The notes: generated from the letters alone by a model not told the origin. A DNA stretch of 64,000 nucleotides from Candidatus Omnitrophota bacterium (GCA_041662125.1 JBAZTA010000003.1:264962-328961), one strand, 5' to 3'. Numbered from the stretch's first letter, positions 1,649 to 62,198 are shown. Translations and numbers: made by a program.

Positions 1649-2779
1649 TCATTTTTTACTAAAGAAATCCTTGATTTTCTTTATAATAAACGCTTGGGTA
1701 TTATTCTTTATATCCGGATGAAGCGGGATGCTCAGCAATTCCTCGTAAATTTCTTCGGTTACCGGTAAATGCTTTCCCTTTGAACCAAAATATGTAAGCA
1801 GATGATTCGGATAATAATGCACGCCGCATTCTATACCGCAACCAAGCAAATAACTCCTTAAATCGTTTCTCTTTCCTTCACGTACCCGGATAGAAAATAT
1901 ATGCGGGACAATTTTCTCATAATCATCAGGAAATAACGTTAATTCTTTTATTGCCGATAATGCCTGAAAATACCGTTTTGCCAGTTTTTGACGGCTTGGT
2001 TTAAATTCATTTTCAAACCTTTTGAATTGCGCAATGCCTATTGCCGCAAATAGATTGCTCATATGATACCGGTACCCCTGGTGAAAAACATCAAACTTCC
2101 AGCTGCGCTCTCCAGAATACCTTTTTTCAGTATCGTTATGCACTCCTAAAAGTCGGGCATCCTTGATTATTCTGATAACTTTTGCATCTTTAGTTACTAT
2201 CGCCCCCCCCTCACCGCAGGTAATATTTTTTATACCATCAAAACTAAAACAAACCACATCTCCAAAAGAACCAACCAGCCTGCCTTTGTAAAAAGTTCCA
2301 AACGCGTGAGCCGCGTCTTCAACAACTCTCAAGCCATGTTTACGGGCAAACGCGTATACCTCATCCAGATTCCCTGTCCTGCTGGCATAATGGACAGGCA
2401 TGATTGCTTTAGTCTTCTTGGTTAATCGACCAGCCGCATCCTTAAGGTCAATAGTCACAGTTGCGGGGAGGATTTCGCAGGGAACAGGCCGCGCGCCTAC
2501 CGCGCTGATAGCCTGAAAACAAGCAACAAAGGTAAGCGACTGCACCAAAACTTCATCTCCGGGCCCGATACCAATGCCCATGAGCGCCAGATGCAATGCC
2601 GCAGTGCCCGAATTAACACAGATGACCTCTCTGCCGCCAAAATACTCACCGAGTGTTTTCTCAAACTCACAGACGAACTTCCCCATACCCAGGTAAGATC
2701 CATCGATAACCTTACCGAGTGCTTTTTTCTCAGCTCTGCCAACGACCGATTTCGAAAGCCGGATCATTTTATTTTTCAT
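1649..2779 (-). CDS. DegT/DnrJ/EryC1/StrS-family PLP-dependent sugar aminotransferase
   Basis: Typical N-terminus 'MIRLSKSVVGRAEKKALGKVIDGSYLGMGKFVCEFEKTL'. Active-site lysine context 'FSFDGIKNITCGEGGAIVT' has Lys rather than His, so aminotransferase rather than E1 dehydrase. Start set at the ATGA-coupled Met; the alternative ATG at 2767 is equally possible. Confidence 0.75.
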   Translation of the reverse strand: MKNKMIRLSKSVVGRAEKKALGKVIDGSYLGMGKFVCEFEKTLGEYFGGREVICVNSGTAALHLALMGIGIGPGDEVLVQSLTFVACFQAISAVGARPVPCEILPATVTIDLKDAAGRLTKKTKAIMPVHYASRTGNLDEVYAFARKHGLRVVEDAAHAFGTFYKGRLVGSFGDVVCFSFDGIKNITCGEGGAIVTKDAKVIRIIKDARLLGVHNDTEKRYSGERSWKFDVFHQGYRYHMSNLFAAIGIAQFKRFENEFKPSRQKLAKRYFQALSAIKELTLFPDDYEKIVPHIFSIRVREGKRNDLRSYLLGCGIECGVHYYPNHLLTYFGSKGKHLPVTEEIYEELLSIPLHPDIKNNTQAFIIKKIKDFFSKK

Positions 2780-4275
2780 CGTACTTTTGACCAATCCTTC
2801 CTGCTGATAAAATTAAATATCTTTTTAAGGAAATACCCTGGATCTTTCAATAATTTTGATATAACCACCGCAATAAAACCAAGAGGATCCTTTTTTAGGA
2901 AAGTAAGTAAAAGAAACCGCTGTCCCTCAGCAAGGATTTTCTTGAGTTTTGTGCCATCCATCACTTCAGTTGAAATAGAGAAACTCCTGATATAAAGGTC
3001 ATCAAGTGAAAAATCAGGCCGCAGGAACCCTTTCTCTTTACATAATTTAAAAAGTTCCGAACCGGGATATGGAGTGGCTATCGATATATGCGGAGTAAAA
3101 ACCCCCAGGCTCGCGGAAAAACGAAAACTTTCCCATATTTGCTCTTGCGTTTCGTACGGCATGCCAACGACCAGAAAAATCCCGATACGCAGCCCTATCT
3201 TTTTCGCATACCTTACCAAGGGCGAGACTTTTTTAAGGTCAAGCGGCTTTTTGATGATCGTATTAAGGACTTTCTGGCTCCCGGACTCAAGAGCGAAATT
3301 AAGAGAATGGCAACCGCTTTGCTTCATTTTATTAATAAGGCTTTCATTTAATGTCCACGCGGCGATTCCATTAGGAGTATCCCAAACCAATCCCAATTTA
3401 TCCCTGCACATCCCCTCAAAAATATTATATGCGCGAGAAGGATCCAGGGTAAGGTTATCATCTTCAAACATAATTTCTTCTATCCCGTATTGAGTTTTCA
3501 AAAAGCTCAGTTCACGCAAAACATTTTCCGGTGAACGCGTGCGAAAAGCGCGCCCCCATACCGCGTAGGCAGAACAGAAAGTGCACTGCGCGGGGCATCC
3601 GCGCGAAGTTATAACAGGCGCGAATCTTTTTTTTCGCCTTTCACCGTGAGAAGACTTTAATCCAAAATACTTCTCCATGCTCAAAAGATGCCAGGCAGGA
3701 AACGGCAGAGCGTCAAGGTCTTCAATGAACCTCTTTTTCGGTATTACCTTGACAACACCCTTATCTTTATATCCGACGCCATCAAGCGTTGAAAAATCTT
3801 GATTTCCCTCAATACATGCTATCAAATCAAGGAGAGTTCTCTCACCTTCCCCCAGAACGACATAATCAACAAACTCATCTGCAAGGACCAACTCGGGCAT
3901 CACCGTAGGATGAGCGCCTCCCGCAAGGGTTATGGTTGCCTGGTCAATTTTCTTAGCAATTTCATAAATTTTATGCGCGCATTTTCGCTGTTTCGTAAAT
4001 AAATTGTTAACGCCAACAATATCCGGCTTGTAGTCGCTGGTAATTGCTTCTATCGTCTCAAAAGGCAAACCGATACGGATTGAGTCTTCCGACACACTGA
4101 CTCTGGTATCCCAACCTTCAATCAAAGCATCAATTATCTTTACTTCAATCCCTTTTTTTTCAAGAACCGCGGCTAAATACCCGAGTCCTAAAGGCGGCAT
4201 AGGATTAATATCGATCCTGTCTTTAAAGGTAATCGCAGGAGGATTAAATAAAAGGACTTTTTTGATCTTTTTCAT
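2776..4275 (-). CDS. B12-binding-domain radical SAM enzyme (class B, putative methyltransferase/other radical tailoring)
   Basis: 499 aa. N-terminal cobalamin-binding-like domain followed by radical SAM CxxxCxxC 'CPAQCTFC'. Confidence 0.75.
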   Translation of the reverse strand: MKKIKKVLLFNPPAITFKDRIDINPMPPLGLGYLAAVLEKKGIEVKIIDALIEGWDTRVSVSEDSIRIGLPFETIEAITSDYKPDIVGVNNLFTKQRKCAHKIYEIAKKIDQATITLAGGAHPTVMPELVLADEFVDYVVLGEGERTLLDLIACIEGNQDFSTLDGVGYKDKGVVKVIPKKRFIEDLDALPFPAWHLLSMEKYFGLKSSHGERRKKRFAPVITSRGCPAQCTFCSAYAVWGRAFRTRSPENVLRELSFLKTQYGIEEIMFEDDNLTLDPSRAYNIFEGMCRDKLGLVWDTPNGIAAWTLNESLINKMKQSGCHSLNFALESGSQKVLNTIIKKPLDLKKVSPLVRYAKKIGLRIGIFLVVGMPYETQEQIWESFRFSASLGVFTPHISIATPYPGSELFKLCKEKGFLRPDFSLDDLYIRSFSISTEVMDGTKLKKILAEGQRFLLLTFLKKDPLGFIAVVISKLLKDPGYFLKKIFNFISRKDWSKVR

Positions 4276-5486
4276 AACAAATTATAGTATTTTTCAGCCA
4301 TAACCCCTGCTTGAAACATATGATTCAACCGATCATAACCCTTTTCAACCATAGTATTGGATAGAGTAGCATTATTCAATATTTGTTTCATGGCGCAAGC
4401 TAATTGTTGAGAATTATTTGGTTCAACAATTAACCCTGCATCACCTAATACTTCAGGAATACCGCCAACGTCAGAAGCGATTACAGGTTTTTTATAAAGC
4501 ATTGCTTCAAGTAAAACCATTCCAAAACTCTCATAATTAATTGAGGGAAAAACAAACACATCAAAGCATTCAATGTATTCCCAGGCAGCATCGAGATACC
4601 CGGTTAAAAAAACCTTTTTTTCAAGGCGAAGCTCTTGGATAAGTTTATTTAAAGTAATTGCGTGCGCAAAAGCATCACTTCCTATAATAACTAGTTTTGA
4701 GTGCGGAAATTCATCCTGAATTTGATAAAACGCCCTGATAAGATATTCGTGGCCTTTTCTTTCCTCATAATCGCCAATGCAACCAATAATTTTGCCTGCT
4801 CCATCTAATTTCAGCGTATTCCTTTTATCTCTCAGGGATAAATGAGCGGTTCTCTCAGTAATAATGCCATTATATATATACGTTATTTTCTGGGCAGTCA
4901 GAAACCTTGTTTCTTTAAGCTGCTTGGCGCAAGAAGAAGAAACACAAATAATTTGCGAACAAGAATGATCAATCCACGCATCTATAATTCGGTCAAAAAT
5001 TCTAAAAGGCCACTGAGAGATCGTAGCGTTGTTGTGGATAACAAGAAATATCTTTTTTATCCTCGCCAATCGAGCGGCAACCACAAAAGAAAGACTTAAT
5101 TCAGCTGCCGGATAGCCGCCATTATGAGAAAATACAACTTCGAATTTATCTTTTTTTAATTTAAAATAGAATATGATTATTGAATATAAAAAAATAGGAA
5201 ATTTTAATACACTCGCTATTTTTCGCAGCTTCCAGCAAAATTGAGAGAAGCCAGAGGTTGCCCCTCTCTTAAGACTTGTGAAATTAATATCGCTCGTAGC
5301 CAATACATGAATTTGTTTTACCTTCAGGCCCCCGGCATCATAGACATACTTTCCTTTATGGCCTTTATTAAGCCACACCTCACAATGATCATTTTTAGCC
5401 GGCCATGCCTTAATCAAATTTACTAAAACGGTATCTACTCCTCCTATTTCCCGGCTCGAATAAAAGAAAACGATTTTTTTAGCCAT
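4272..5486 (-). CDS. Glycosyltransferase family 4 (GT-B, retaining)
   Basis: 404 aa. C-terminal EX7E-type motif region 'FPSINYESFGMVLLEAMLYKKPVIASDVGGIPEVL'. Confidence 0.75.
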   Translation of the reverse strand: MAKKIVFFYSSREIGGVDTVLVNLIKAWPAKNDHCEVWLNKGHKGKYVYDAGGLKVKQIHVLATSDINFTSLKRGATSGFSQFCWKLRKIASVLKFPIFLYSIIIFYFKLKKDKFEVVFSHNGGYPAAELSLSFVVAARLARIKKIFLVIHNNATISQWPFRIFDRIIDAWIDHSCSQIICVSSSCAKQLKETRFLTAQKITYIYNGIITERTAHLSLRDKRNTLKLDGAGKIIGCIGDYEERKGHEYLIRAFYQIQDEFPHSKLVIIGSDAFAHAITLNKLIQELRLEKKVFLTGYLDAAWEYIECFDVFVFPSINYESFGMVLLEAMLYKKPVIASDVGGIPEVLGDAGLIVEPNNSQQLACAMKQILNNATLSNTMVEKGYDRLNHMFQAGVMAEKYYNLL

Positions 5487-5498
5487 CTATGCTTTATA

Positions 5499-6383
5499 TT
5501 AACAAACCAAACATTGCCAACCCCATTGCTTAAATTCTGGAACGCTAAAAGAAGATTCTAAAGAAGCAAGATAATTAGGCGCTCCCGGATTGAGCGCTTC
5601 AAGTGTTTTAAGAGGGATCAATTTCACGCCTTTTATTCCCCAGGATATATAGAAAATAGTATACCCGAATCCCTCTAAATACTTATGCACAGAATCTCCG
5701 GCTCCAACAAGATTTTCATAGACGATATTTTTAATCATCTTTTGCCGTAACAAATTCTGCGCACCTTCCAACACTCTTAACTCATGCCCCTCGACATCAA
5801 TCTTTACCAATGATACGCTCTGCTTTGAAACAATTTCATCTAAGGTAGTTGTCATGGCAGGAATCCCTTGAGATTGATCATCTGAAAGATACGATGTACC
5901 CCAACTTTTCAAAATGTCGTCTTCATTAAAAGAAACAAGGCGTTGTTCTTTTCTTGCATTACTGAGCGCAGCATTAAATATCGTTATTTTTCCTGCTTTT
6001 TTGTTTTGCTTGAACAATTGAACATTATCCTTCAATACACTAAATACAAATTGATGCGGCTCAAAAGCTAAAACAGTCCCGGTTGTCCCACAGCGGCTTG
6101 CCATAATACTCGTCATATACCCGACATTGGCTCCTACATCAATAACCAGATCTCCCGGTTTGATAAGCCTCCACAACACTTCGCTCACCTCTAATTCAAA
6201 AATACACCGGTACCATAACGATAGCCCAACCGCTTCCCGGACATCAACCTTAATTTCCATGCCCCAGGGTAAAGCAAGTTTTCGCATTCTTGCTTTTTTA
6301 CAGAATGTTCCGCGCAACAATCGAATAAACAGTTGTTGCGGCCTGAATACGTAATAAGGTTGAAAAGGATTTCGAATTTTCAT
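5499..6383 (-). CDS. FkbM-family SAM-dependent methyltransferase
   Basis: 294 aa. 'LVIDVGANVGYMTSIMA' is characteristic of FkbM-family MTases. Confidence 0.7.
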   Translation of the reverse strand: MKIRNPFQPYYVFRPQQLFIRLLRGTFCKKARMRKLALPWGMEIKVDVREAVGLSLWYRCIFELEVSEVLWRLIKPGDLVIDVGANVGYMTSIMASRCGTTGTVLAFEPHQFVFSVLKDNVQLFKQNKKAGKITIFNAALSNARKEQRLVSFNEDDILKSWGTSYLSDDQSQGIPAMTTTLDEIVSKQSVSLVKIDVEGHELRVLEGAQNLLRQKMIKNIVYENLVGAGDSVHKYLEGFGYTIFYISWGIKGVKLIPLKTLEALNPGAPNYLASLESSFSVPEFKQWGWQCLVC

Positions 6384-6407: not shown

Positions 6408-7148
6408 TTATTTTTTCAACATAGCTTGCCTTACTCCATACCGTATATCAAGCAACAGCTCCCAGGCATAACGCAAGAATACAGTTACAAGCCTTTTAAG
6501 CTTTTGCGCGATAACCTGTTTTCTTGACATCTTATCAATTGGGTTTTGCGGCTCATCAGAAGTTTGCTGTTGAGGAATTACAAATTTACCGATGCTTTTC
6601 AACTTCTTCGCAACGATCCAGATCACAATATCCTCTCCGCGGGCAGGATCCTTAATAATATTTCCATAAACCGTACTGAACTTTAAATATATGACCTGAA
6701 AATTATTTGATTCCAGCGCACCTCGTATCGCTACAGGATTTAACACATGCAATCCGTGTCCGAAAAATCCGTTTACCGCTGTAACCAACACGTAAGCGCC
6801 GCCAACTTTTACCATACGCAAGCAATTCTCAATGCACTGCCTTGTGTCAAAAACATGTTCTAAACATCCTATATCGAAAACGACATTATATTTCTCATTT
6901 TCTTCTCGGGGAACAGGCAAATTCATATCATATTTTAAATCTGCCCTCTCATCAAAATAATCCAATGTCGAAATCTCAGATACTCCTTTTGCAACCAGCA
7001 ACTCCTTAACATCTTTGTATTCAAATTCATTGGAAGCACCACTTGCGTCAAAAACCTGATACCCAAACATCAAAAAAGGCCCTTTTAAAATTCCCGGGAT
7101 ACTGAATATTTCGTTACAAATAGGCATAAGAGCTTTTGATAACGCCAC
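6408..7148 (-). CDS. Hypothetical protein, methyltransferase-like with degenerate motif I
   Basis: 246 aa. 'VVFDIGCLEHVFD' resembles class-I MTase motif III, but no clear GxGxG. GTG start preceded by strong SD 'AGGAGGAG'. Confidence 0.35.
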   Translation of the reverse strand: MALSKALMPICNEIFSIPGILKGPFLMFGYQVFDASGASNEFEYKDVKELLVAKGVSEISTLDYFDERADLKYDMNLPVPREENEKYNVVFDIGCLEHVFDTRQCIENCLRMVKVGGAYVLVTAVNGFFGHGLHVLNPVAIRGALESNNFQVIYLKFSTVYGNIIKDPARGEDIVIWIVAKKLKSIGKFVIPQQQTSDEPQNPIDKMSRKQVIAQKLKRLVTVFLRYAWELLLDIRYGVRQAMLKK

Positions 7149-7217
7149 AGTTCTCCTCCTGAAATTATTCCAAAACTTTTGTTTCTTAACTCGAGAACGA
7201 TCCCTTGTAAAAACGGC

Positions 7218-8150
7218 TTAATTTTTTTTCATAATAAGTGAAAATAACGCCCCCCCGTAAGGAGAATTGTTTTTAATTTTCCTTGAGAAAAACTTATTAA
7301 TTCCGTTACTACTCTCATTGACCCAAGCTCCTAAATGTTTATAGGTATTTACCGAAATTATCTTAAAATCAGGGAAAAATCTTTCATGCAATTTAAAAGG
7401 GTCAAAACCTTCACCCTTTTCATCAGGATCATGAATATCGACAATTGCGTTTATATCCTTAATAGTCAAATCTTGCCCAACAAGCTTCTTTTCCTTAACA
7501 GCCCAATAAACCTTCTGATTAAAATCCTTTCCTGGCCCAAGCCGTTTACGGAACATCCCCAAAAATATAAGGATATTGCGCGCGATTCTCTTTAATACCA
7601 TCCTTACTTTCACTAAATTTTGGTAAACAAACAAAATAAACGACCTGTTTTGAGAATGTAGTTTATTTCTCTCATGCATTATTATAAAAAGACCTCCCTT
7701 AGTAACATGTTTCCCCAGCCCTGACAAAACTTGCGGGTAATCAGGGATATGATGCAAAACTGAATTCATCGTAATACAATCAACTTTTAAGTCCATCTTG
7801 GAAATTTCAAGCGCGTCGGCTTTTATAAATTCTTTCTTAATCTTATTCAGCGATGCTAAATGTTCTTGTGTAATCTTAAGCATTTTCTCAGATAGATCCG
7901 TACAAATTATCTTGTCGTTTTCTTTCAAATACCCGGATACAAGCATAGGAACAAATCCGGTTCCGGTGCCGATATCAAGGATAGTAAGTTGCTTATCACT
8001 TTTTAAAAAGGTTTGCCCGATCTGTTCCCAGGCGGATTTTTCATCTACATATATTTCCGGATGCCTTTGCACATAATATTGGGCTTCCAGATCATGATAG
8101 ATCTCGTTAACTTCCTTAACTTGAGCGTCGTCTAAAATTATTTTAGCCAT
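7218..8150 (-). CDS. Class I SAM-dependent methyltransferase
   Basis: 310 aa. Motif I 'ILDIGTGTGFVPMLVSGYL'. Confidence 0.75.
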   Translation of the reverse strand: MAKIILDDAQVKEVNEIYHDLEAQYYVQRHPEIYVDEKSAWEQIGQTFLKSDKQLTILDIGTGTGFVPMLVSGYLKENDKIICTDLSEKMLKITQEHLASLNKIKKEFIKADALEISKMDLKVDCITMNSVLHHIPDYPQVLSGLGKHVTKGGLFIIMHERNKLHSQNRSFILFVYQNLVKVRMVLKRIARNILIFLGMFRKRLGPGKDFNQKVYWAVKEKKLVGQDLTIKDINAIVDIHDPDEKGEGFDPFKLHERFFPDFKIISVNTYKHLGAWVNESSNGINKFFSRKIKNNSPYGGALFSLIMKKN

Positions 8151-9348: not shown

Positions 9349-10737
9349 CTACGTTTGCCTAAAACCTCGAAAATCCCTGTTCTTTTTTAAATAGAGATTT
9401 TCAGCCTCTAAGATCATAGCCTTGCATTTTTTACTATAATAGTTTTTCAATAACACCGAATTAGCTTCAAGCAAACAACGATGAAAGTCATCAGCAGAAA
9501 GTTCGGTAAAATTTACGGTTAAAAGATCAGAATTAATATGTTTGTTTTCATAAAAATCCTCGCAATCTCTCAATAAACCTTTTCGGATCGCATAGTAATA
9601 CAGCGGAGACCCGGGATACGGAGTTACCGGCCGGATCGTGCGCATCTGTGAACAATCGTCATATTTCAGCAAGAATTCAACCCCTTTAAACAATGTTTCT
9701 TTGTTTTCTCCGATGTTTCCGAAAATAATGTTATAGCCTGGGCTTATTCCGGCTTTCAAAGTCGCTTCTATCCCCTTGATGATCTGTTGCGTCGTTAATG
9801 ATTTATTCATATTTTTGAGTATCCGGTTATCCATGGCTTCTATGCCATAATTAATAAAAACGCAACCGGATCTTTTCATCAGTTTCAAAACTTCTGGCAG
9901 GGCAAAATTGAGCCTGCCGCAACAAGACCATTTAATATGTAATTTGTTTTTAAGAAAATCGTTGCACAGGCTGGTTATTCGTGCGATCGAAGTCATCAAA
10001 AGTTCGTCAGTGAAAACAATATACTGTATACCGTAATCTTTCTTTAACAGCTTTATTTCTTCAATAATGCCGGCACTGGAGCGGATGCGCAGGCCTTCAT
10101 CCATCCGATAACAAAAATTACATTTAAAATTACACCCTCTGCCGGAAAGAACCGGCATCGCAAAATCACTATTCAATGCGTGAGGCATTCTTAAAAGCCT
10201 ATAATGGTCAATGGGAAACAGATTAAAAGCAGGAAATGGTATGCTGTCAATATTTTCTATAAGGGCACGCCTGGGGTTAATCACAACTTTCTGACCTTCC
10301 CTAAACGCTATTCCCAAAACATTCGAAAACGATGTTTTGTTCTTCAAAGCATTCAGCAATTCAATAACAGTGATCTCGCCTTCCCCCATCACCACAGCAT
10401 CCGCTTGTGTTTTTAAAAGAAAATATTCCGGTTCAGGGGTCGGCCCATGGCCGCCGATAACAAAAAAAGGCCGTTTACGAAGCTCGCGTATTACACGCGA
10501 TATCTTTAACAACTTTCTATATTGATAATACCCCGCGATCACACTAACCCCAACAACATCAAAATGATTCTTTTTCAAATATTCCTTAAGATGCTCTTCC
10601 GGATAATGGGATATGTCCTGATTATAAATTTCTACCTCATGCCCGTTTTGAGATAAAACCGCAGCAATATATGCAAGTCCTTGCGGGAAGAAATGAATAT
10701 AGGCTCCGTTATCATAAATAACCAATAAAATTTTCAT
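9349..10737 (-). CDS. B12-binding-domain radical SAM enzyme (class B)
   Basis: 462 aa. N-terminal B12-binding-like domain and radical SAM 'GCNFKCNFCY'. Paralogous architecture to 2776..4275. Confidence 0.75.
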   Translation of the reverse strand: MKILLVIYDNGAYIHFFPQGLAYIAAVLSQNGHEVEIYNQDISHYPEEHLKEYLKKNHFDVVGVSVIAGYYQYRKLLKISRVIRELRKRPFFVIGGHGPTPEPEYFLLKTQADAVVMGEGEITVIELLNALKNKTSFSNVLGIAFREGQKVVINPRRALIENIDSIPFPAFNLFPIDHYRLLRMPHALNSDFAMPVLSGRGCNFKCNFCYRMDEGLRIRSSAGIIEEIKLLKKDYGIQYIVFTDELLMTSIARITSLCNDFLKNKLHIKWSCCGRLNFALPEVLKLMKRSGCVFINYGIEAMDNRILKNMNKSLTTQQIIKGIEATLKAGISPGYNIIFGNIGENKETLFKGVEFLLKYDDCSQMRTIRPVTPYPGSPLYYYAIRKGLLRDCEDFYENKHINSDLLTVNFTELSADDFHRCLLEANSVLLKNYYSKKCKAMILEAENLYLKKNRDFRGFRQT

Positions 10738-15374: not shown

Positions 15375-15390
15375 GAATTTTAACCTTTCA

Positions 15391-16787: not shown

Positions 16788-16799
16788 GGCATCATATTT

Positions 16800-18559: not shown

Positions 18560-18568
18560 TTTATGGAC

Positions 18569-19342: not shown

Positions 19343-19345
19343 TAC

Positions 19346-20248: not shown

Positions 20249-20263
20249 AATAAAGAATAATGC

Positions 20264-21580: not shown

Positions 21581-21597
21581 AATTAACTCCGGGTATT

Positions 21598-22635: not shown

Positions 22636-22667
22636 ACCTCAAATTTTAAATTAAAATTATTAAATAC

Positions 22668-23825: not shown

Positions 23826-23826
23826 A

Positions 23827-26362: not shown

Positions 26363-26372
26363 AACACCTTTT

Positions 26373-27413
26373 TTAGTTGTCCTTGCATAAAAAATGCCAA
26401 TATGGCAGTGTATCAGAAATAACCACACTTTTAAATGAATCCTGCAACGCGGCAATATCTTTCTTACTAAACCGTTGTTCTATACGCGTAAAAAACCGGT
26501 CATAAACATCTTGACGGATCCGCGCAAGCGTTTTTCCTCTATAGCCTTCATACAGCGGGACAGAACAACGCAAATTCATTTTATGCAACAAAGCTCCGAG
26601 TGAAATTAACGGAAGATACACGGTAATTGCGACAACACTGGTAAATACTGACCGGAAAAATTCATTTCTAACATGCGATACCGCTAAACGGACCATGGTT
26701 ACCAGGGAAAGTAAAACTTGGAAAAATCTCGGCCGGTTATCAAGTGAATAATACAAATATATCAAAAGAGCAGGTGAATAACTTTTAAGTTTTCTGACGG
26801 TTGCCAAAGCGTTAACCGGCATATGGTGCAAAACACCAAGACAAAACAGGAAATCAGCGAACGGGGTTGCAAAGGGGAGACAATTGATATCAGCCATAAA
26901 AAAAATAGCATTATCGCGGCGGCGCAGGTTCCTGCGGGCCACAAAGATCGCTTCTGAAAAATCAACAAGCACCAATTCACGGCAGGCATCCCCAAGGAAA
27001 TAACTCCAGCGGCCGATACCGCAACCTAAATCGCAGACACGCGCATGCTTCAAATCGTCAATATTGACGAGGTCAAAATATTGTGAAAACTCTTCTCTAT
27101 GCTCAGGTAAAATATCGGGAAACTGCTGCCATTCTGACCCAAAGGTAAATTGGATATCTTCCGCGAAATCAGCTGAAACAGCAGTTTTTTTAATACTGCC
27201 GGCCAGCCTTTTTTGAAGCGCAGGCGGATATTGATCAGGCTCAAGCAAGATAATAACATCATCAACAATCGGATACCTGCGATTGTTGACAATAAGTAAA
27301 TCACCTTTAAGCTCGATATTGCGGGTTCCAAAAATATCTTTCAGGCTAGCGATCTTATTGTCATAAAATAGAGTTTTTCCGGGCTTTACACTATTTTGTT
27401 TAAGCTCGTTCAT
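26373..27413 (-). CDS. Class I SAM-dependent methyltransferase with hydrophobic C-terminal extension
   Basis: 346 aa. Motif I 'VCDLGCGIGRWSYFL'. C-terminal about 100 aa hydrophobic. Confidence 0.65.
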   Translation of the reverse strand: MNELKQNSVKPGKTLFYDNKIASLKDIFGTRNIELKGDLLIVNNRRYPIVDDVIILLEPDQYPPALQKRLAGSIKKTAVSADFAEDIQFTFGSEWQQFPDILPEHREEFSQYFDLVNIDDLKHARVCDLGCGIGRWSYFLGDACRELVLVDFSEAIFVARRNLRRRDNAIFFMADINCLPFATPFADFLFCLGVLHHMPVNALATVRKLKSYSPALLIYLYYSLDNRPRFFQVLLSLVTMVRLAVSHVRNEFFRSVFTSVVAITVYLPLISLGALLHKMNLRCSVPLYEGYRGKTLARIRQDVYDRFFTRIEQRFSKKDIAALQDSFKSVVISDTLPYWHFLCKDN

Positions 27414-32231: not shown

Positions 32232-32259
32232 AGGTATTTTATCGCAGCAAGACTGCGCT

Positions 32260-35917: not shown

Positions 35918-37165
35918 TTAGAGTGAAATAGTGTACGGCTCATGAGGCAACGGTATAATGATCTTACCGTGAAAATGATACTTGTTCTTTAACAGTGCTA
36001 AAATTTCAGATTTAAAGTTCCATGCCAACAAAACAATTGTATCGGGCTTTAAAGCAAAGGCTTCTTGCGGGGAGACGATCAGAATATTTGTCCCTGCCGT
36101 ATAGGTATTATGCTTCAAGGGGTTCTGGTCAGCGATACAAACCAAATATTCATTATTGATCGCGCAATAATTAAGCAGTGTTGAGCTGCGTGCTGAAGCG
36201 CCATATCCAATGATAGTTTTTCCTGTTTTGAATTCTGCATCCAGCAATTTGGTTAATTTCTTACGATGTGCCAAGCAATCGCGCGCAAACGCCTTCCACA
36301 GTGTCAATGTATTTAACCCTATTTCTTTCTCACAGAGGATCTTTTGTTTCAAACCCTTTGAATGGGCTTTTTTCTTGTCGTCATGGGTAAAATAGACCAC
36401 CAAAGAACCGCCGCTGATCGGACTTTTCATGAGGTCATAAACCGCTAAACCATGCTGCCTGAGCAAAAACATAATGCTCTTGAGCGAAAAATAGAACAAA
36501 TGTTCATGATAAATAGAATCATACTGCAGGCCGTTTACAATCTCTTGAGCATAATGAAACTCTATCGCACCAACCCCCTCGCAGCCCAGGCAGCATTTTA
36601 TCCCTGCAATAACTTCATGGATTAAAGCAACATGAGGGATAACATTACGGGCAAAAACAAAATCTGCCGCGCCTTGGGTTGCAACAATCTTATGAGCGAC
36701 CGTTTCATTAAAGAATTCTGCCTGCGTCGGTATGCCCTGCTTTCGAGCAAGAGATGCGATATTCTCGGCAGGATCTATACCTTGAACCTTACAACCCTGT
36801 TCCCGGAATGCTTTTAAGAAGGTACCGTCATTACTGGCAATTTCCACAACAAAAGGTTTGTGTGATTTTAAGTGTTTTTTCGCCGCTTGGAAGAAAATAC
36901 CTGCATACTCCTTTGCAGTGGCAGATGTGCCGGTCACCCAAACATAGTGTTTAAACAAGAGCTCTGGATTAACGGTCTGGGTCAACTGAATAGTAGTACA
37001 ATGAGCGCATCGGCAAAGCGCAAGCGCAAATTTTGGCAGTTCTCTAGAAAGGTTCTTGCGAAGGGTGTTCGCAGGAGGCTGCGCGCCTAAATCAAGAAAT
37101 GTTTTGATCAAACCACTTTTACAGATACGGCAGCGCGTGATCGATTCCGATAACTTTTTTGGCAT
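35918..37165 (-). CDS. NDP-hexose C-methyltransferase (TylC3/NovU-type, zinc-ribbon + class I MTase + C-terminal domain)
   Basis: N-terminal 'CRICKSGLIKTFLDLGAQPPAN' matches the CxxC...LDLG.QP.AN start of the C-methyltransferase family. Start trimmed to 'MPKKLSE' to avoid overlap. Confidence 0.65.
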   Translation of the reverse strand: MPKKLSESITRCRICKSGLIKTFLDLGAQPPANTLRKNLSRELPKFALALCRCAHCTTIQLTQTVNPELLFKHYVWVTGTSATAKEYAGIFFQAAKKHLKSHKPFVVEIASNDGTFLKAFREQGCKVQGIDPAENIASLARKQGIPTQAEFFNETVAHKIVATQGAADFVFARNVIPHVALIHEVIAGIKCCLGCEGVGAIEFHYAQEIVNGLQYDSIYHEHLFYFSLKSIMFLLRQHGLAVYDLMKSPISGGSLVVYFTHDDKKKAHSKGLKQKILCEKEIGLNTLTLWKAFARDCLAHRKKLTKLLDAEFKTGKTIIGYGASARSSTLLNYCAINNEYLVCIADQNPLKHNTYTAGTNILIVSPQEAFALKPDTIVLLAWNFKSEILALLKNKYHFHGKIIIPLPHEPYTISL

Positions 37166-37169
37166 GCTT

Positions 37170-38222
37170 TTAGGCTTCTTCCTGATCTTCAATGCTATAT
37201 CGCAGCTCGTTATCAAGCTGGCGCGACTGAAGCATATACTCCAGCTGTTTTAAACGGTTAGTCATTCTACCCCTGAATTGATCTTCATTGAATTTAACTT
37301 TCTTGAAAAACTCAACCAGCTCTTCTCCGCCTCTGATTAAATCCCATTCAGGCTTAAAATAATCTTTCAAAACTGTCAATATCTTCTTAAAACTGACACG
37401 GTATGTCCGGGAATCTTTCCCGTGCTCGCCGGTAAAAATAAGTTTACTCCCCTTTACGGCCTTCTGCGCTGCTTCCCCAAGGTCTCTGACCGTAAAATTG
37501 CCGTTAGGGATACCGACATTAAATGATTGATTCGCAACCAGGTCTTTTGGCGCTTCTAACCCCGCGATAAAAGCACTTGAAACATCCCTGATATGCACCA
37601 CCGGCCTCCAGGGTGTTCCGTCGCTTTTAATCTCAATCTTACCCGTCGTGTAAGCACACCCTACCAGGCTGTTATAAACAATATCGCAGCGCAGCCGCGG
37701 GCTTGCCCCAAAGACAGTTGATGGACGAAAAGCAACAACTACAAAATCCCGGGTTCCCAGCTCCCGCAGCTTCAATTCAGCAAGCCATTTTGTTTTCGCA
37801 TAGACCGTAATAGGATTCTTTTCACTTGTATCTTCATCCAGCTCGCCTTCTACATTTGAGACCCCATACATACTCTGGGATGATGAATATATAAAGCGTT
37901 TAACTCCCGCCTTTTTTGCTAAAGCAGCTAAGGAAACCGTCGCATGAAAATTTATTTCTTCAGTCAAACGCGGTTCCAACGCGCCTAAGGGGTCGTTAGA
38001 AAGCCCGGCTAAATGGATAACAGCATCAAAACCTTCAACATCCCCCAACACAATATCCCGAATATCTTTCCTGATCATGGTATATGCATGCTTTGCCGGA
38101 AACAGGCTGTTTTGGGCGTAATAATCAACATCATACCCAACAATGTCGTAGCCCTTCTCGATCAACATTCCTGTTAATACACTCCCAATATATCCTCGGT
38201 CACCCGTAACCAGAATTTTCAC
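37170..38222 (-). CDS. NAD-dependent epimerase/dehydratase-family protein (GalE/WcaG-like)
   Basis: 350 aa. GTG start with SD 'GAGGT'. 'ILVTGDRGYIGSVLTGML'. 'YAKTKWLAE'. Paralog of 53447..54454. Confidence 0.7.
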   Translation of the reverse strand: MKILVTGDRGYIGSVLTGMLIEKGYDIVGYDVDYYAQNSLFPAKHAYTMIRKDIRDIVLGDVEGFDAVIHLAGLSNDPLGALEPRLTEEINFHATVSLAALAKKAGVKRFIYSSSQSMYGVSNVEGELDEDTSEKNPITVYAKTKWLAELKLRELGTRDFVVVAFRPSTVFGASPRLRCDIVYNSLVGCAYTTGKIEIKSDGTPWRPVVHIRDVSSAFIAGLEAPKDLVANQSFNVGIPNGNFTVRDLGEAAQKAVKGSKLIFTGEHGKDSRTYRVSFKKILTVLKDYFKPEWDLIRGGEELVEFFKKVKFNEDQFRGRMTNRLKQLEYMLQSRQLDNELRYSIEDQEEA

Positions 38223-38351: not shown

Positions 38352-39506
38352 TTATACTGATTCTTTTACGTTTTGCTTATTGATCCAGTCGGCGAATTCT
38401 TTTATATTCGAAATATCTTTCAAAAGGATCGCCCCCTGCCAGAGGCTTTGCACTTTAGACTTCTTTGCGCCTGCCAAGAGAAGAAATAAGCGCTGCCAAC
38501 TCTGCGTATCAAAAAATATCGTCAATACGCACAACCAGTCAAAAAAAGACAATTTTCCCATCCAGCGGATAATATCACCCCCAGAAGCAGCCCGGGAACG
38601 ATACTGCAGATACCAGGAATAAACCTGCCGACGCACGTAATTTGCCCGGCTGATCTCAACAGCACTCAAAAGCTCAGGATAATTAGTCTTGAGAAGTTGC
38701 AGCCACACATACATGCAATTATTAAGCTCAATCCCCGCAAGCCTGCCTTTGAAATCAGAATTTATCCCTAAATATTTCTTGCCTTCATCCTGTTTGTCGC
38801 TATACACGTAATGGCCAAAGGATTTAGGAGAAACCCCGACTACCAGCATTTTTTCAGGAAGAAATACCCAGGAATTAACGGTCAACAATAAAGAATTTAA
38901 CGCGTAATGGTCAGGAAATGGCGGTTGAAAAGCCCCACCCTTGATCGTATTCATTGCTTTGCGCGACATTAATGTCGTCTGCATATTCAGAGGGATACGA
39001 TTACGGAAAGAGAACATGTCACGGACAATTGAAAGCCTTTTTTCCGTTAAAATTAATCCTTCTCTTGTGAAATCCGGCCCAAAATTAAAAAAAGGATCTT
39101 TATAAAAACTATTGGCGTTTCCGCTAATTGAATGAGGCGCTACATAACTATACGCGTTATAGGTGACACAGTCAGGATCATGATACGCATGTAAGACTTC
39201 TGCCATGCGGGAAAAATATCCCGGAAGCAGGCAATCATCATCACCCATCATCAATACATAATCGCCGCGGCTCGACTGGAGCGCACGATTCCAATTCTCG
39301 GTCACACACACCGGTTCTTCTAACGTCACCACTTTCAGGCGCTTATCAGAGATAAAAGAATGAATAACTTTTTTAGTTTCATCGGTATTGGCATTATCAG
39401 AAACGACTAACTCCATATCCTGGTACGGCTCATCTAAGATAGAATGCATGCAATGCGAGAGGAAACGCCCTCCGTTACGAGTAGGCAGCAGCACAGAAAA
39501 TTTCAC
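38352..39506 (-). CDS. Glycosyltransferase family 2
   Basis: 384 aa. 'SVLLPTRNGGRFLSHCMHSIL' and 'VVSDNANTDETKKV' (DxD region) of the GT2 family. Confidence 0.75.
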   Translation of the reverse strand: MKFSVLLPTRNGGRFLSHCMHSILDEPYQDMELVVSDNANTDETKKVIHSFISDKRLKVVTLEEPVCVTENWNRALQSSRGDYVLMMGDDDCLLPGYFSRMAEVLHAYHDPDCVTYNAYSYVAPHSISGNANSFYKDPFFNFGPDFTREGLILTEKRLSIVRDMFSFRNRIPLNMQTTLMSRKAMNTIKGGAFQPPFPDHYALNSLLLTVNSWVFLPEKMLVVGVSPKSFGHYVYSDKQDEGKKYLGINSDFKGRLAGIELNNCMYVWLQLLKTNYPELLSAVEISRANYVRRQVYSWYLQYRSRAASGGDIIRWMGKLSFFDWLCVLTIFFDTQSWQRLFLLLAGAKKSKVQSLWQGAILLKDISNIKEFADWINKQNVKESV

Positions 39507-40756
39507 TTCTTATTCTCCTTATCTTTAAGATTCAGATATATTTCTTCAACATAACCGCTCCTGACCCATGAAGCATTTCTCCCAAGGCGTTTAAAACCCC
39601 CTACCTGAGCAACAACTTCAGGCACCCATACCTGCGGTTTTCCATGCACGATACTATAAGCTTCATGATTATAACTGAAAAATATGCCGCGCAGGCGCTT
39701 TTTCGCAAACGAGATATACGCGCTTACGATTTCTTCCGACATCTCCGGCATGCTGTTTTCATTCACCAACACATCGATATCCTGCTTTATTGCCGGCTCA
39801 AAAGCAACATTCGGCAGGATAGATATACAAGCGCTTGATTGGTCAATTTCTCCGTATAACTTCACCTGCCTTACGGTGAACGCCTGCGATAAAAAATATC
39901 CCTGCAACACGTTTATTAACGGCAAATCAATAATAGTATACGTTCTGATCTTAAGGTCCTTAAGTTTCAACAACCAATACGCTAATCCTCCAAAACCAGC
40001 GCCAATTTCCAGCAGATTGAGCTCATTGCCTGCTGTAACATTCAAATGATCCCGGGCAGCCTGACTGATACGCAGTGCGACATAAAGATGTTCAGGATGT
40101 TCCATAGTTATTAACGAACTATTCGCTTTAACGCCGTAGGGACTGCCTATATCAGGGAATCCTATTGAGATGCCCAAACAGGCTTCGATTTGAGAGACAA
40201 CTGCTGTAATCCCGTCCTTTAAACCATACGCTCTAAGCCCTTGTTGAGTAGATTCAGCGCGTACCAAACCCAAGTATTCCGCCAATGAAACCACATTGTC
40301 TTGATATTTCAATGACCAGATTTTACTTCCTATCCGGCTCTTGGAATGTTCCACTAAACTCCCCGAAGCTAAACCATACACAAAATCCTCCCGGAACATC
40401 CTGGATAAAAGCAAAGCTAATTCGTGCGCGTTTCCTCTCTCAACAACAGTCATAAGCTTCCCGGAATAACGCTTAAGGCCTTCTGACCAGATCAGGCTCG
40501 TATTGTTTTCTGGCGTTGATCTCTCAGCGGTAGCTTTACGATACGCGGCGATCAAACGTTCACATAAAACCACGTCTTCTTGAGATACCTCTTTAGCCTT
40601 ATTGTATATGATTTTCAACGTAGGGACCTTTTTTAAATTAAAAACCCAAAGATAGTGCTTCAAATATTTAAGCAGATCATAATTTATAAGCGAAACCCCC
40701 ATCGCCCGGGAGAGCCTGCTGTTGAGGATTTTTTTTATACTGTTCTTTAAAAACAT
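39503..40756 (-). CDS. Putative SAM-dependent (sugar O-)methyltransferase, large LIC12133-like type
   Basis: 417 aa. Motif I 'LLEIGAGFGGLAYWLL' in the C-terminal half. Long N-terminal domain of unknown function. Confidence 0.45.
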   Translation of the reverse strand: MFLKNSIKKILNSRLSRAMGVSLINYDLLKYLKHYLWVFNLKKVPTLKIIYNKAKEVSQEDVVLCERLIAAYRKATAERSTPENNTSLIWSEGLKRYSGKLMTVVERGNAHELALLLSRMFREDFVYGLASGSLVEHSKSRIGSKIWSLKYQDNVVSLAEYLGLVRAESTQQGLRAYGLKDGITAVVSQIEACLGISIGFPDIGSPYGVKANSSLITMEHPEHLYVALRISQAARDHLNVTAGNELNLLEIGAGFGGLAYWLLKLKDLKIRTYTIIDLPLINVLQGYFLSQAFTVRQVKLYGEIDQSSACISILPNVAFEPAIKQDIDVLVNENSMPEMSEEIVSAYISFAKKRLRGIFFSYNHEAYSIVHGKPQVWVPEVVAQVGGFKRLGRNASWVRSGYVEEIYLNLKDKENKK

Positions 40757-40770
40757 TTTTGTATCTCTGA

Positions 40771-41658
40771 TTAAGGTTTGATTTTTTGAAAAACAACCGT
40801 ATAGGCGCTGCTTTTACCTTTCAGGCGGTCAAACACATTCATGGGCAGGGCAACAAGATACCCCAAACAAAAAGCTAACTTCTGAAACAAACGGCTGGAG
40901 CATCGATTCATCAGATACCGCTGCCAGCCAAATCTATTCCAACTTCGTGCGCCTTTATCATTAAAACTAACCAGCATCGGTTCTAATCCTAAAGGCTTCA
41001 TGTGTTTTATCAAAAGCTCAAGCGGGATCAAACAAAGGTGCCGAGGCGCATCCACATGAGGCCAGCATGCTCCCTGAAACCGGAATTGCGCTGCAGCAGG
41101 ATTCGGCGTTGCTATTAAAAAGACCCCTTTATCATTAAGCTTTTGCGCTGCCTTGGAAATAAATTCCCACGGAAACGGCAAATGTTCGATCACATGCCAT
41201 AAGGCGATCACATCATAGTTTTTTGCCGAGTCAAGGGCTGTATGCGGCGAATTACTTTGTACGGTTTTAACGCCAATGGTGTTACGTAAAAACTCGCAGC
41301 ACTTCTTTTCCTTCTCAATTACTTCCACATCAAAACCTGCAGTTTTTGCCTGATACGCGAAAATTCCAAATCCCGGGCCAACTTCAAGCAGGCGTCCGGT
41401 TTTGACAAAAGCAGTGACCATTGCAAGCTGATACGCCTCTTTACGGGCGACTGATCTTACTTTTTCTACTGTCGGCGGACAATAATACTCATCCCCATAA
41501 TACGCATCAAGGTCAACAGGGATATTTGACAAAAAGATCAATTGGCACTCAAAACACAACCGATAGTCAAAAATTTCGCCGGAAACTTTCCTGTTCACAT
41601 CTTTGGTTTTAAACACGATGCCAGAATCTTTTTTACAGCGGGGACAGGTTTCCTGCAT
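40771..41658 (-). CDS. Class I SAM-dependent methyltransferase with N-terminal zinc-ribbon
   Basis: 'CPRCKK...CFECQ' and motif I 'LLEVGPGFGIFAYQA'. Start uncertain; the track Met at 41724 overlaps the upstream gene by 56 nt. Confidence 0.6.
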   Translation of the reverse strand: MQETCPRCKKDSGIVFKTKDVNRKVSGEIFDYRLCFECQLIFLSNIPVDLDAYYGDEYYCPPTVEKVRSVARKEAYQLAMVTAFVKTGRLLEVGPGFGIFAYQAKTAGFDVEVIEKEKKCCEFLRNTIGVKTVQSNSPHTALDSAKNYDVIALWHVIEHLPFPWEFISKAAQKLNDKGVFLIATPNPAAAQFRFQGACWPHVDAPRHLCLIPLELLIKHMKPLGLEPMLVSFNDKGARSWNRFGWQRYLMNRCSSRLFQKLAFCLGYLVALPMNVFDRLKGKSSAYTVVFQKIKP

Positions 41659-41668
41659 AAACTTTATT

Positions 41669-42580
41669 TTATCCTTTCGGCACCGTAAGCTTCCACCAGG
41701 CAATGGTCTTATCAAGGGCTTCATTCATACTGAATTTAGGTGACCAATTGACTTGGTCTTTTAATCTCTTAACAGAGGCGATCAAAACCGATGGCTCATC
41801 AGGTGAAACCTTAAGTAACCCAAATTTCACTAAAGCAGGCCGGCCGACCTTTCCGGCAATAAGGCCAATGATATCTTTTATTGAAACAGCTTCACCTGAG
41901 CCGATATTAACTGCCCCTTCGATAGTGCTTTCCAGGATGGATACAAACGCTCCAGCGACATCTTCGACGTATAAAAAATCGCGTTTTTGGCTGCCTGACG
42001 AACAAGCCACCTCTTTACCCTGCAAAAGAGAACAAATAACCGACGGCACTAACCGGGCGGGATGTTCTCCCGGCCCGTAAACGAAAAAAATCCTTCCCCA
42101 GGCCCAGCTCAAATGAGTTTCCAGAGAAAATTCTTCCAACTTCCGACGAAACTCATTTTTACACCTACCATATACAGTCGCTGGCGCTAAAGGAGTCGCT
42201 GTCTCATCGCAGCATTCTTTTGTCCAATCATACTCAGCGCAGGTACCCGCCGCAACAACGCGTATTCCACCGTACTTTTGAAAAGTACGGGCTAAAAACA
42301 GGCTTGCCTGGACCCAATCATAATTCTCTTGAGCAGTCCAATATTTTTTATGCTCTGTATACCAGGCTAAATGCAATAAATGAGTCGGTTTTACCTTCTG
42401 CATCAACGCTTCTATATCAGAAGTGTTAAGTAAATCCGCCTGGTGCCATACAATCTCATTCTTTGGAGATTGATCATTGAGAAGCGAAACAGCATGGACT
42501 TCATAGCCTTTTTCAATAAGTAATGGTAACAGGTGTCTTCCAATAAAACCTTGAGATCCGGTAACCAGGATTTTCTTCAT
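41669..42580 (-). CDS. NAD-dependent epimerase/dehydratase-family reductase
   Basis: 303 aa. 'ILVTGSQGFIGRHLLPLL'. Paralog of 34456..35343. Confidence 0.65.
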   Translation of the reverse strand: MKKILVTGSQGFIGRHLLPLLIEKGYEVHAVSLLNDQSPKNEIVWHQADLLNTSDIEALMQKVKPTHLLHLAWYTEHKKYWTAQENYDWVQASLFLARTFQKYGGIRVVAAGTCAEYDWTKECCDETATPLAPATVYGRCKNEFRRKLEEFSLETHLSWAWGRIFFVYGPGEHPARLVPSVICSLLQGKEVACSSGSQKRDFLYVEDVAGAFVSILESTIEGAVNIGSGEAVSIKDIIGLIAGKVGRPALVKFGLLKVSPDEPSVLIASVKRLKDQVNWSPKFSMNEALDKTIAWWKLTVPKG

Positions 42581-46334: not shown

Positions 46335-47006
46335 TTAATCAGCAATAAACCACCAGTAATCACCGTTAAAACCTACTTCTGAAAACAGCTTTTTCCAATC
46401 ATCAACATGCATCATCGTCTCGGCAGTAAGCACCCATTTAAAAAGATTCTCACGTTCCAGGTCATTGCGCCAGGCATCAACAGTAATATAGCTGTGGCCG
46501 CGCGAAACCCGTTCTATTTCACGCAGAGAATTTTTAAGGCGTTCAAGCGGAAGGTTATGTATCGAATTTATGGAAATAACCAGGTCAAAACTTTTATCGG
46601 GAAAGGGCAGTATTTCAGCGCTTGCTATCTTAAGATATGGTTTAACATCTTCCAGGGCATTTTCAATCGCGTAGCGGCTGACATCGACACCGGCGATTGC
46701 AGCTTTCGGCAACGCTACTTTAAAATCATAAAGGAGGAAGCCTTTCGCGCATCCAATATCCAAGACCGCGGCATTATCGGGTAAATGATAATATTCTATC
46801 AAGCGTTTCACGACCAGTTTCCAACGTCCGTCATACTTGTAACCGCCGTACCCGCACTTTCTATCACCGTCAAAAAAATCTTTACCGAACTCTTTAGCGA
46901 GTTTAATAATATCCTTTGTTTTCTCTTGCGCGCGCCGATCATAATCTCGCGCGGTCTTTGGATGTGAATCTAATAAATTGATCTCTTTTCCCATATTCAG
47001 TATCAA
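46335..47006 (-). CDS. Class I SAM-dependent methyltransferase
   Basis: 223 aa. 'VLDIGCAKGFLLYDF'. Confidence 0.7.
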   Translation of the reverse strand: MILNMGKEINLLDSHPKTARDYDRRAQEKTKDIIKLAKEFGKDFFDGDRKCGYGGYKYDGRWKLVVKRLIEYYHLPDNAAVLDIGCAKGFLLYDFKVALPKAAIAGVDVSRYAIENALEDVKPYLKIASAEILPFPDKSFDLVISINSIHNLPLERLKNSLREIERVSRGHSYITVDAWRNDLERENLFKWVLTAETMMHVDDWKKLFSEVGFNGDYWWFIAD

Positions 47007-48812: not shown

Positions 48813-49510
48813 CGTTTAATTGCATTATTACGCATACCTGCTCCTAGCGCCCAAATATAATGACACATCGGGGCATAACCGGTATGCACAACTTCATCAT
48901 TCATGCCGAACATAAAAACATTTTTACAATATTTCTCAATAAGGTTCTTCAAAGCGCTCATACTTTTTAAATTTATATGTTGGACTTGGCTGCGGGGAGT
49001 TGCGTACGCAGAAGCAGTAATATTCGGTGTTCCCACGATCAATACGCCATCCGGATTCAAACATCGCACGAGGTTACGCATAAATGCTTTTTCTTTTCGA
49101 GGTTCAAGATGCTCGATCACATCGATCATAAATATGGCATCAACTTTTAAGCGTGGCGAATTTTTATTAAGATCCACGTGCACATACTCTACATTCTTTA
49201 AATGAGCGAGCCTCTGGCGATTGCCGTCTAAGAGGCGCATATCCCAATCAGCCGCGTAAACCTTTTTGACTGCCGCAGATATGATCGAGAGCCCAAAACC
49301 ATCTCCTGAGCCGATCTCCATGACCGTATCTTTACCTTCAAGCATCTTCGCGCAAAATTTATAGCGCGCAAGCACAAAACTCATATGTTTAGGGTCGTGC
49401 ACCAGGCTGTATGATGTCCAAGGCCCAAGCGTGATCTCAGGAGTGTTAAATTGATACTCAGTCCCTTCTGTATACGCCTGTTCTGCTGATTGTATTGATC
49501 TCTTCTTCAT
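48809..49510 (-). CDS. Class I SAM-dependent methyltransferase
   Basis: 233 aa. 'VMEIGSGDGFGLSIIS'. Confidence 0.7.
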   Translation of the reverse strand: MKKRSIQSAEQAYTEGTEYQFNTPEITLGPWTSYSLVHDPKHMSFVLARYKFCAKMLEGKDTVMEIGSGDGFGLSIISAAVKKVYAADWDMRLLDGNRQRLAHLKNVEYVHVDLNKNSPRLKVDAIFMIDVIEHLEPRKEKAFMRNLVRCLNPDGVLIVGTPNITASAYATPRSQVQHINLKSMSALKNLIEKYCKNVFMFGMNDEVVHTGYAPMCHYIWALGAGMRNNAIKR

Positions 49511-52455: not shown

Positions 52456-52470
52456 ATATATTCCTCTTGG

Positions 52471-62193: not shown

Positions 62194-62198
62194 AAGTT

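Follow-up and report, generated by a model that had tools for sequence, protein, structure and literature searches.

A 246-residue class I methyltransferase-fold protein with a remodelled motif I in a glycan island of Candidatus Omnitrophota

The glycine-rich loop GxGxG (motif I), the most diagnostic element for binding of S-adenosylmethionine (SAM) in class I methyltransferases, is dispensable for this function, as illustrated by TPMT, an active class I methyltransferase with a single motif-I glycine. The same fold is found in non-catalytic partners with a non-canonical cofactor motif that act together with a catalytic methyltransferase, such as METTL14 (for METTL3) and Trm6 (for Trm61). Among the enzymes that act on glycans, WbdD-type polysaccharide-terminating methyltransferases are anchored to the membrane through an amphipathic helix at their C terminus, and multiply methylated sugars are made by clustered methyltransferases of differing regiospecificity (e.g., SpnH/I/K of spinosyn or Rmt/Fmt of the mycobacterial glycopeptidolipids). 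Here, we analyzed a stretch of 64,000 nucleotides from Candidatus Omnitrophota bacterium (GCA_041662125.1 JBAZTA010000003.1:264962-328961; hereafter, the window) and, within it, an open reading frame (ORF) at 6408..7148 (-) in which the original prediction, made from the sequence alone, had seen a degenerate methyltransferase. We found that its product has the class I methyltransferase fold and belongs to an unnamed family whose motif I is of the GxQ type.

The ORF is the maximal one at these positions and, as predicted, encodes a protein of 246 amino acids. Its GTG start codon is credible because an AGGAGG Shine-Dalgarno sequence, read directly at 7155..7160 (-), lies 6 nucleotides 5' of the GTG at 7148-7146, and because the N terminus MALSK pairs with the MAILK of homologues in the alignment. 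The product is identical to the NCBI entry "hypothetical protein WDL87_06495" (Candidatus Omnitrophota), and the ORF is a real gene.

The register of the sequence motifs was obtained with hhalign from a profile of 236 family sequences, the set on which all conservation counts below are based, aligned to 18 canonical methyltransferases from the window and related loci (probability 95.9%, E 5.6e-9, residues 19-165). G29 corresponds to the first glycine of GSGDG and Q31 to the position of the second, D63 is the post-I acidic residue, D74 is the motif II Asp, and DIGCLEHV is motif III. This alignment, with the expected register, supersedes one made with a 47-sequence family profile and one canonical methyltransferase, which had placed DIGC on motif I with a probability of 4.8% and was spurious.

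Motif I of the family consists of strand beta1, G29 (229/236), Q31 (186/236), and an insertion of at least 12 residues. The target itself reads F-G29-Y-Q31-V followed by a 12-residue insertion, which is far longer in some subgroups, and glycine is not among the five commonest residues at position 31 in the 236 sequences. The class I pattern E/D-x-G-x-G-x-G after beta1 is thus absent; G.G.G occurs nowhere in the protein, in agreement with the original prediction, and the sole G.G is the GHG at residue 130. The motif-III-like segment that had been noticed is also real (VVFDIGCLEHVFD, residues 89-101), with D92 kept in 232 sequences and G94, E97, and H98 in 235 each. However, this is not the only motif retained, since profile-profile alignment and family conservation add G29, D63, and D74-M-N76. 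D63, at the C-terminal end of beta2, is present in 235/236, and in class I methyltransferases this post-I acidic position contacts the ribose hydroxyls. Motif II is conserved at D74 (226/236), N76 (229/236), and P78 (216/236), and its KYDMNLP pairs with "QMDIS" of juvenile hormone acid methyltransferase and with "VDLN" of the Methyltransf_12 protein of the window. The Asp/Asn after beta3 and the hydrophobic beta4 ending in D/G expected of motifs II and III are therefore both found. Outside these motifs, N148 is kept in 231 sequences, and the loop after beta5 (GFFGHGLHVLNP) has H131 and G132 in 233 each and His (171) or Tyr (56) at position 134, which we infer to be a candidate acceptor-binding or catalytic loop. 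Judging from the alignment, all of the cofactor-contact loops except the glycine loop would be retained and near-invariant in the family. By its structure and by four of the five sequence motifs, the protein belongs to the class I superfamily; what it lacks is the glycine loop.

The predicted structural model is confident overall, with strands that include residues 25-28 and 59-62, and shows an alpha/beta fold with a seven-stranded sheet in which strand 7 is antiparallel, as in class I methyltransferases. Compared with the Methyltransf_11/12/23-type enzymes acting on small molecules or sugars (UbiG, juvenile hormone acid methyltransferase, RebM, NodS, and PDB 3l8d), the target has G-[YFR]-Q plus an insertion instead of GxGxG, has no helix between beta2 and beta3 in the model, and carries the H131-G-x-H134 loop and a PQQ motif of its own family. 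The last 37 residues of the model form a long amphipathic helix with a hydrophobic moment of 0.5-0.65 and 11 K/R against 2 D/E, in which no hydrophobic stretch of transmembrane grade was found and which the alignment restricts to the closest relatives. We propose that this helix is a membrane-interface anchor or an oligomerization helix. An amphipathic C-terminal helix, here cationic and known from the predicted model and the sequence, is shared with WbdD, but the large WbdD protein combines a kinase with a methyltransferase, carries a coiled-coil ruler, and has a canonical motif I, and no homology between the two was detected. Likewise, TPMT is a small-molecule S-methyltransferase whose sequence relationship to the target is undetectable.

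At the family level, the best Pfam match is Methyltransf_12, with 19.9 bits against a cut-off of 30, and covers residues 80-117 on profile positions 56-96 of 98. Gathering thresholds of Methyltransf_11, _12, _23, and _31 over the whole domain were not reached, and FkbM (Methyltransf_21), NanM (TIGR04371), the LIC12133 type, and DUF268 gave no match in Pfam/NCBIfam at E<=0.1. Considering that the protein fails both the glycine-loop criterion and all of the curated thresholds, it should not be filed under Methyltransf_11/12/23, FkbM, NanM, or DUF268 and we regard it as representing a new and so far unnamed variant family inside the known class I methyltransferase superfamily. Among 25 of its relatives at the superfamily level, 13 match Methyltransf_12 and 11 match Methyltransf_23, some of them at E 1e-7 to 1e-8 (best E 7.8e-8). 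The family is large. At least 125 homologues with 37-73% identity, almost all of them unannotated, came from a word-indexed search. When 1.84 billion representatives (of 50%-identity clusters) were searched exhaustively with a profile, 4,655 clusters scored E<=1e-3, of which 2,710 reached E<=1e-10 and 82 reached E<=1e-30. Species-representative genomes contain 57 family loci, and the hosts belong to Omnitrophota, Patescibacteria, Planctomycetota, Acidobacteriota, Actinomycetota (including a cultured Micromonospora), Chloroflexota, Nitrospirota, deltaproteobacteria, and Verrucomicrobiota, besides one nanoarchaeon. Conservation across the 236 sequences and so many phyla indicates a functional protein under strong constraint and not a decaying copy; with an intact ORF, about a dozen near-invariant positions, and thousands of homologue clusters, the term "degenerate" does not apply.

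A sister group of proteins of 280-310 amino acids, annotated as "SAM-dependent methyltransferase" or "hypothetical" (e.g., SAMN02745166_01914 of Prosthecobacter debontii), is 21-30% identical to the target. Both groups have in common LGRQ, SxD, HDLN-P-P, D-G-[TS]-LEH-[VI]-F, GHGFY-FSP, NGF, and PQQSDY, the last of which corresponds to P192-Q193-Q194 of the target and was found in sister proteins of 290-310 amino acids. The sister group, also uncharacterized, differs in its greater length, an insertion of ~40 residues after motif I, and another C-terminal tail. In the literature, we found nothing specific on a characterized glycan methyltransferase without GxGxG or on this Omnitrophota cluster.

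Gene neighborhoods were counted over a range of 6 kb at 13 distinct homologue loci with precomputed Pfam annotation. The majority are polysaccharide loci with GT4/GT2 glycosyltransferases, Wzx, Bac_transf, and nucleotide-sugar enzymes; the exceptions are a cluster of the nonribosomal peptide synthetase/P450 type (L006), a locus with only a Glyco_transf_92 gene beside methyltransferases (L066), and a locus with neither a methyltransferase nor a glycan gene in this range (L007). One to four other methyltransferases, often adjacent or overlapping, are found in 12/13 loci; FkbM-type genes are present in 8/13, and B12-radical-SAM genes recur in several. A count by regular expression of motif I, which gave a methyltransferase neighbor in 14/44 loci, was rejected as an underestimate (one and the same locus, L045 = L071, has three by Pfam against one by this count), and the transfer of window annotations to the loci with phmmer was too insensitive for many neighbors. 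The methyltransferases beside the homologues belong to Methyltransf_31, _23, _11, _25, TylF, and FkbM, with no cross-locus similarity or less than 30%. In an all-against-all BLAST, those of 11 loci fell into unrelated groups, whereas identity among the family proteins of these loci is 40-50%, and the product of the upstream gene at 7218 matched no methyltransferase adjacent to homologues elsewhere. Clustering of all neighbor ORFs found no conserved partner gene, the top neighbor family (GT4) being present in 9 of about 50 loci. Since the adjacent methyltransferases are unrelated and no neighbor family exceeds this frequency, a fixed, co-evolving catalytic partner does not exist.

Two other settings of the family were observed. 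A subgroup with an insertion of ~40 residues after motif I is found in deltaproteobacterial metagenome-assembled genomes (MAGs; L068, L070, and L071) within a conserved cassette, which consists of an FkbM (L068/L071) or Methyltransf_23 (L070) gene, GNAT, Bac_transf, a small ORF, the family gene, and Methyltransf_23, with TylF next in L068/L071 and with GT2 and Wzx in L070/L071. The cassette forms a separate, syntenic module for methylated polysaccharides. In Micromonospora sp. DT53 (L006/L046), the homologue is in a non-glycan context, beside an adenylation-PCP (peptidyl carrier protein) protein, a P450, a thioesterase, a Methyltransf_25 gene, and an aminoacyl-tRNA-synthetase-like gene, and natural-product tailoring may be a further role of the family.

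We favor, with moderate confidence, the reading in which the protein, with its remodelled motif I and its cationic, amphipathic helix at the C terminus, works on its own as a SAM-dependent methyltransferase of glycans (probably an O-methyltransferase) and comes from a large and horizontally mobile family working in the tailoring of surface polysaccharides or other glycans. The GxGxG loop would be replaced by h-h-h-G-[YFR]-Q-[DE] and a variable insertion, while the contacts to the cofactor would be kept by D63 after beta2, D74/N76 after beta3, and D92-I-G94 after beta4. SAM would bind in the canonical cleft at the C-terminal edge of the sheet, with Q31 and the inserted loop taking over the contacts of the glycine loop, and the methyl group would be transferred to a sugar hydroxyl or, less probably, to an amine. 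E97/H98/D101 and H131-G-x-H134 are candidates for the acceptor site and the general base because they follow beta4 and beta5, where the acceptor sites of class I enzymes are located. The cationic helix may hold the enzyme at the cytoplasmic face of the membrane, the site of lipid-linked glycan assembly, and the three adjacent methyltransferases (7218, 6408, and 5499), next to a GT4 gene, may each make a different methylation on the same or neighboring residues. Multiple methylation of one sugar would explain the methyltransferase-rich neighborhoods without a scaffold.

Several observations weigh against this reading. The glycine-rich loop is altered in the whole family, with a Gln and an insertion of 12 to ~50 residues at the place where, in canonical enzymes, this loop folds around the cofactor. 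Every curated cut-off was missed in the Pfam/NCBIfam scan, and sequence-profile searches of the PDB gave similarity only over motifs II-IV (to juvenile hormone acid methyltransferase and UbiG), motif I being unreachable. In the cofactor-free model, the predicted local distance difference test scores of the core fall to their minimum (~73-74) at the two loops of highest conservation, and the SpnF cyclase, which has a methyltransferase fold and another chemistry, is among the top structural matches. No characterized family member was found in the source annotations, which read "hypothetical" or the generic "SAM-dependent methyltransferase," and the frequency of neighboring methyltransferases also fits an accessory role.

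Such a role had been suggested by the original prediction, in which the protein could be a non-catalytic scaffold or specificity subunit. In this alternative, a methyltransferase-fold subunit would have lost productive SAM binding and would act as scaffold, activator, or acceptor-specificity subunit for a neighboring methyltransferase. Its best argument is the recurrent "methylation island" setting, both at the 12 annotated loci with canonical methyltransferases and in the window, where two of them flank the target, to which the family-wide loss of two of the three motif I glycines and the insertion can be added. However, the partners that it would require change from locus to locus while the family protein remains similar, and L007 has no methyltransferase at all. 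Near-invariance is seen at the post-I Asp, at the motif II Asp, and at many polar residues that face the predicted cleft even though the motif I glycines are gone, which, to our knowledge, is unlike the pattern of known pseudo-methyltransferases. METTL14 and Trm6 are each tied to a single co-evolving partner and no longer have their cofactor-binding residues, whereas this family has variable partners and keeps D63 and D74. The proposal is not supported, and we regard it as unlikely.

It is rather unlikely, too, that the GxQ family represents a widespread, previously unrecognized glycan-locus class whose remodelled loop reflects a real change of function, toward a promiscuous non-catalytic adaptor recruiting the methyltransferases of each locus to the membrane lipid-linked acceptor or toward a non-methyl sugar chemistry; if true, this would explain the near-constant setting among several unrelated methyltransferases. 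Similarly, we consider it improbable that the methyltransferase fold has been put to another chemistry, with SAM, S-adenosylhomocysteine, or another adenosine-containing compound as a purely structural ligand, with aminocarboxypropyl transfer, or with a rearrangement of the SpnF/LepI type whose substrate would be an intermediate of sugar or natural-product synthesis. It is extremely improbable that the gene is a chance survivor, a decaying paralogue or pseudogene derived from a methyltransferase of the window: the Pfam matches are all below threshold and cover half a domain, but the reading frame is intact behind a strong ribosome-binding site, the fold is predicted with confidence, the window holds no paralogue, and the 4,655 clusters of homologues from several phyla, with residues near-invariant in 236 sequences, effectively refute it.

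By Pfam and NCBIfam scans, the window is a giant sugar/glycan island of a Candidatus Omnitrophota MAG, with 58 sizeable ORFs, all on the (-) strand, that cover 97% of its length. They include many epimerases/dehydratases of the short-chain dehydrogenase/reductase family, DegT aminotransferases, formyltransferases, GT2 and GT4 glycosyltransferases, Wzx flippases, thiamine-diphosphate and E1 alpha/beta enzymes, a carbamoyltransferase, and a nonulosonic-acid block (PseB-like, DegT, PseG-like, NeuB, and CMP-transferase). The "methylation overload" described in the original prediction was confirmed. All seven ORFs in which a motif I had been read (5499, 7218, 26373, 39503, 40771, 46335, and 48809) are methyltransferases by curated models, and the two C-methyltransferases and the two B12-radical SAM enzymes (28% identical to each other) were likewise recovered (Table 1). 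Counting the target and the C-methyltransferases, 10 of the 58 genes have a methyltransferase fold, with a binomial P of 1.6e-8 at an assumed background rate of 1.5% and 8e-6 at an assumed 3%. This enrichment is expected of a sugar-tailoring island and no anomaly in itself. Given this gene content, a hypermethylated glycan is a plausible product of the island.

Table 1. Motifs of the 246-residue protein and methyl-transfer and glycosyltransferase genes discussed in the text (window coordinates).
Feature	Position	Strand	Evidence
Motif-I equivalent, residues 25-31 FLMFGYQ	7056..7076	-	hhalign, conservation, model strand E25-28
Post-I region, residues 59-66 ISTLDYFD, strand beta2 ending at D63	6951..6974	-	Conservation, hhalign, model strand E59-62
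Motif II equivalent, residues 72-78 KYDMNLP (D74, N76, P78)	6915..6935	-	Conservation, profile alignments
Motif III, residues 89-101 VVFDIGCLEHVFD	6846..6884	-	Sub-threshold Pfam Methyltransf_12/31/11 matches (residues 80-125), conservation
Family-specific loop after beta5, residues 127-138 GFFGHGLHVLNP (H131, G132, H134)	6735..6770	-	Conservation, model
P192-Q193-Q194 motif after last strand	6567..6575	-	P 223/236, Q 197/236, Q 230/236
Long cationic amphipathic C-terminal helix, residues 209-245	6414..6524	-	Model helix H209-245
B12-binding radical SAM enzyme	2776..4275	-	Pfam B12-binding + Radical_SAM
GT4 glycosyltransferase	4272..5486	-	Pfam Glycos_transf_1 3.7e-36
FkbM-family methyltransferase, downstream neighbor	5499..6383	-	PF05050 1.8e-20; TIGR01444 5.8e-27
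Canonical class I methyltransferase (Methyltransf_31/12, UbiE-like), upstream neighbor	7218..8150	-	Pfam 9.4e-17
B12-binding radical SAM enzyme	9349..10737	-	Pfam
Class I methyltransferase (Methyltransf_25)	26373..27413	-	
NDP-sugar C-methyltransferase type (Methyltransf_13 + Methyltransf_14)	35918..37216	-	
NanM-type putative sugar O-methyltransferase (TIGR04371)	39503..40756	-	60 bits vs cut-off 44; no Pfam match
Class I methyltransferase (Methyltransf_23), N-terminal CxxC	40771..41724	-	
Class I methyltransferase (Methyltransf_11)	46335..47006	-	
Class I methyltransferase (Methyltransf_12)	48809..49510	-	
NDP-sugar C-methyltransferase type (Methyltransf_13 + Methyltransf_14)	57571..58821	-	

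Further genes of the island, all on the (-) strand, were noted. Between the Methyltransf_31 and B12-radical-SAM genes, an ORF of 378 amino acids (8182-9318) has no Pfam/NCBIfam match at E<=0.1 and no counterpart in the related loci that were searched by phmmer. Directly downstream of a Wzx flippase gene, there are tandem radical-SAM/SPASM paralogues of 339 and 333 amino acids (12283-14300), an uncommon cargo for a glycan locus, and a similar gene adjoins the family homologue in a Chloroflexi locus (L017). The nonulosonic-acid block (14313-24828) looks complete and is of the pseudaminic/legionaminic type, with PseB-like, DegT, two formyltransferase-like, class-III aminotransferase, aldo-keto reductase, CMP-cytidylyltransferase, PseG-like, WbqC, PIG-L deacetylase, and NeuB genes, a composition that would imply an N-formylated or otherwise unusual nonulosonate. 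An ORF of 512 amino acids inside the sugar island (24917-26455) has no family assignment, and its true start is probably further downstream because the maximal ORF, which begins at a TTG, reaches 83 nucleotides into the upstream methyltransferase gene. Another ORF of the sugar island, of 389 amino acids (31140-32309), is likewise unassigned, with just a faint GT1-like C-terminal match (E 0.004). Two E1 alpha/beta (transketolase-like) pairs and an acetolactate-synthase-like thiamine-diphosphate enzyme (28342-30206, 47028-48812, and 51391-53436) are found amid nucleotide-sugar genes, which we take to suggest yersiniose- or aldgarose-like sugars with two-carbon branches. A fusion protein of 884 amino acids (42616-45270) joins an N-terminal Wzx-like O-unit flippase (NF041503, E 2e-12) to a C-terminal glycosyltransferase domain of the TIGR04372 family (E 2.5e-60). 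Finally, two small hydrophobic ORFs of 52 and 133 amino acids (59812-59970 and 59982-60383), directly downstream of a NodU/CmcH-type carbamoyltransferase (60364-62229), presumably resemble the DUF5989/SxtJ pair of small membrane proteins, a common companion of such carbamoyltransferases.

In this genome, intact enzymes of methyl transfer are encoded in the island at an unusual density, which is relevant to the variable polysaccharide surface cassettes described in Omnitrophota (bioRxiv 10.64898/2026.06.07.730766). Divergent class I methyltransferases in glycan clusters are unsurprising in themselves, and the value of this family lies in annotation and in what it may tell about the plasticity of SAM binding. 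It is a large family of surface-polysaccharide loci, present in many bacterial phyla and at least one archaeon, that no curated model captures and whose members are mostly labelled "hypothetical." As an annotation signature, we propose h-L-x-h-G-[YFR]-Q ... D ... D-[ML]-N-x-P ... D-I-G-x-L-E-H-V-F-[DN] ... G-H-G-x-[HY]-x-F-x-P ... P-Q-Q, from which pipelines could recognize family members. The family also provides a clean test case for the extent to which motif I can be reduced in a class I methyltransferase before SAM binding is lost.
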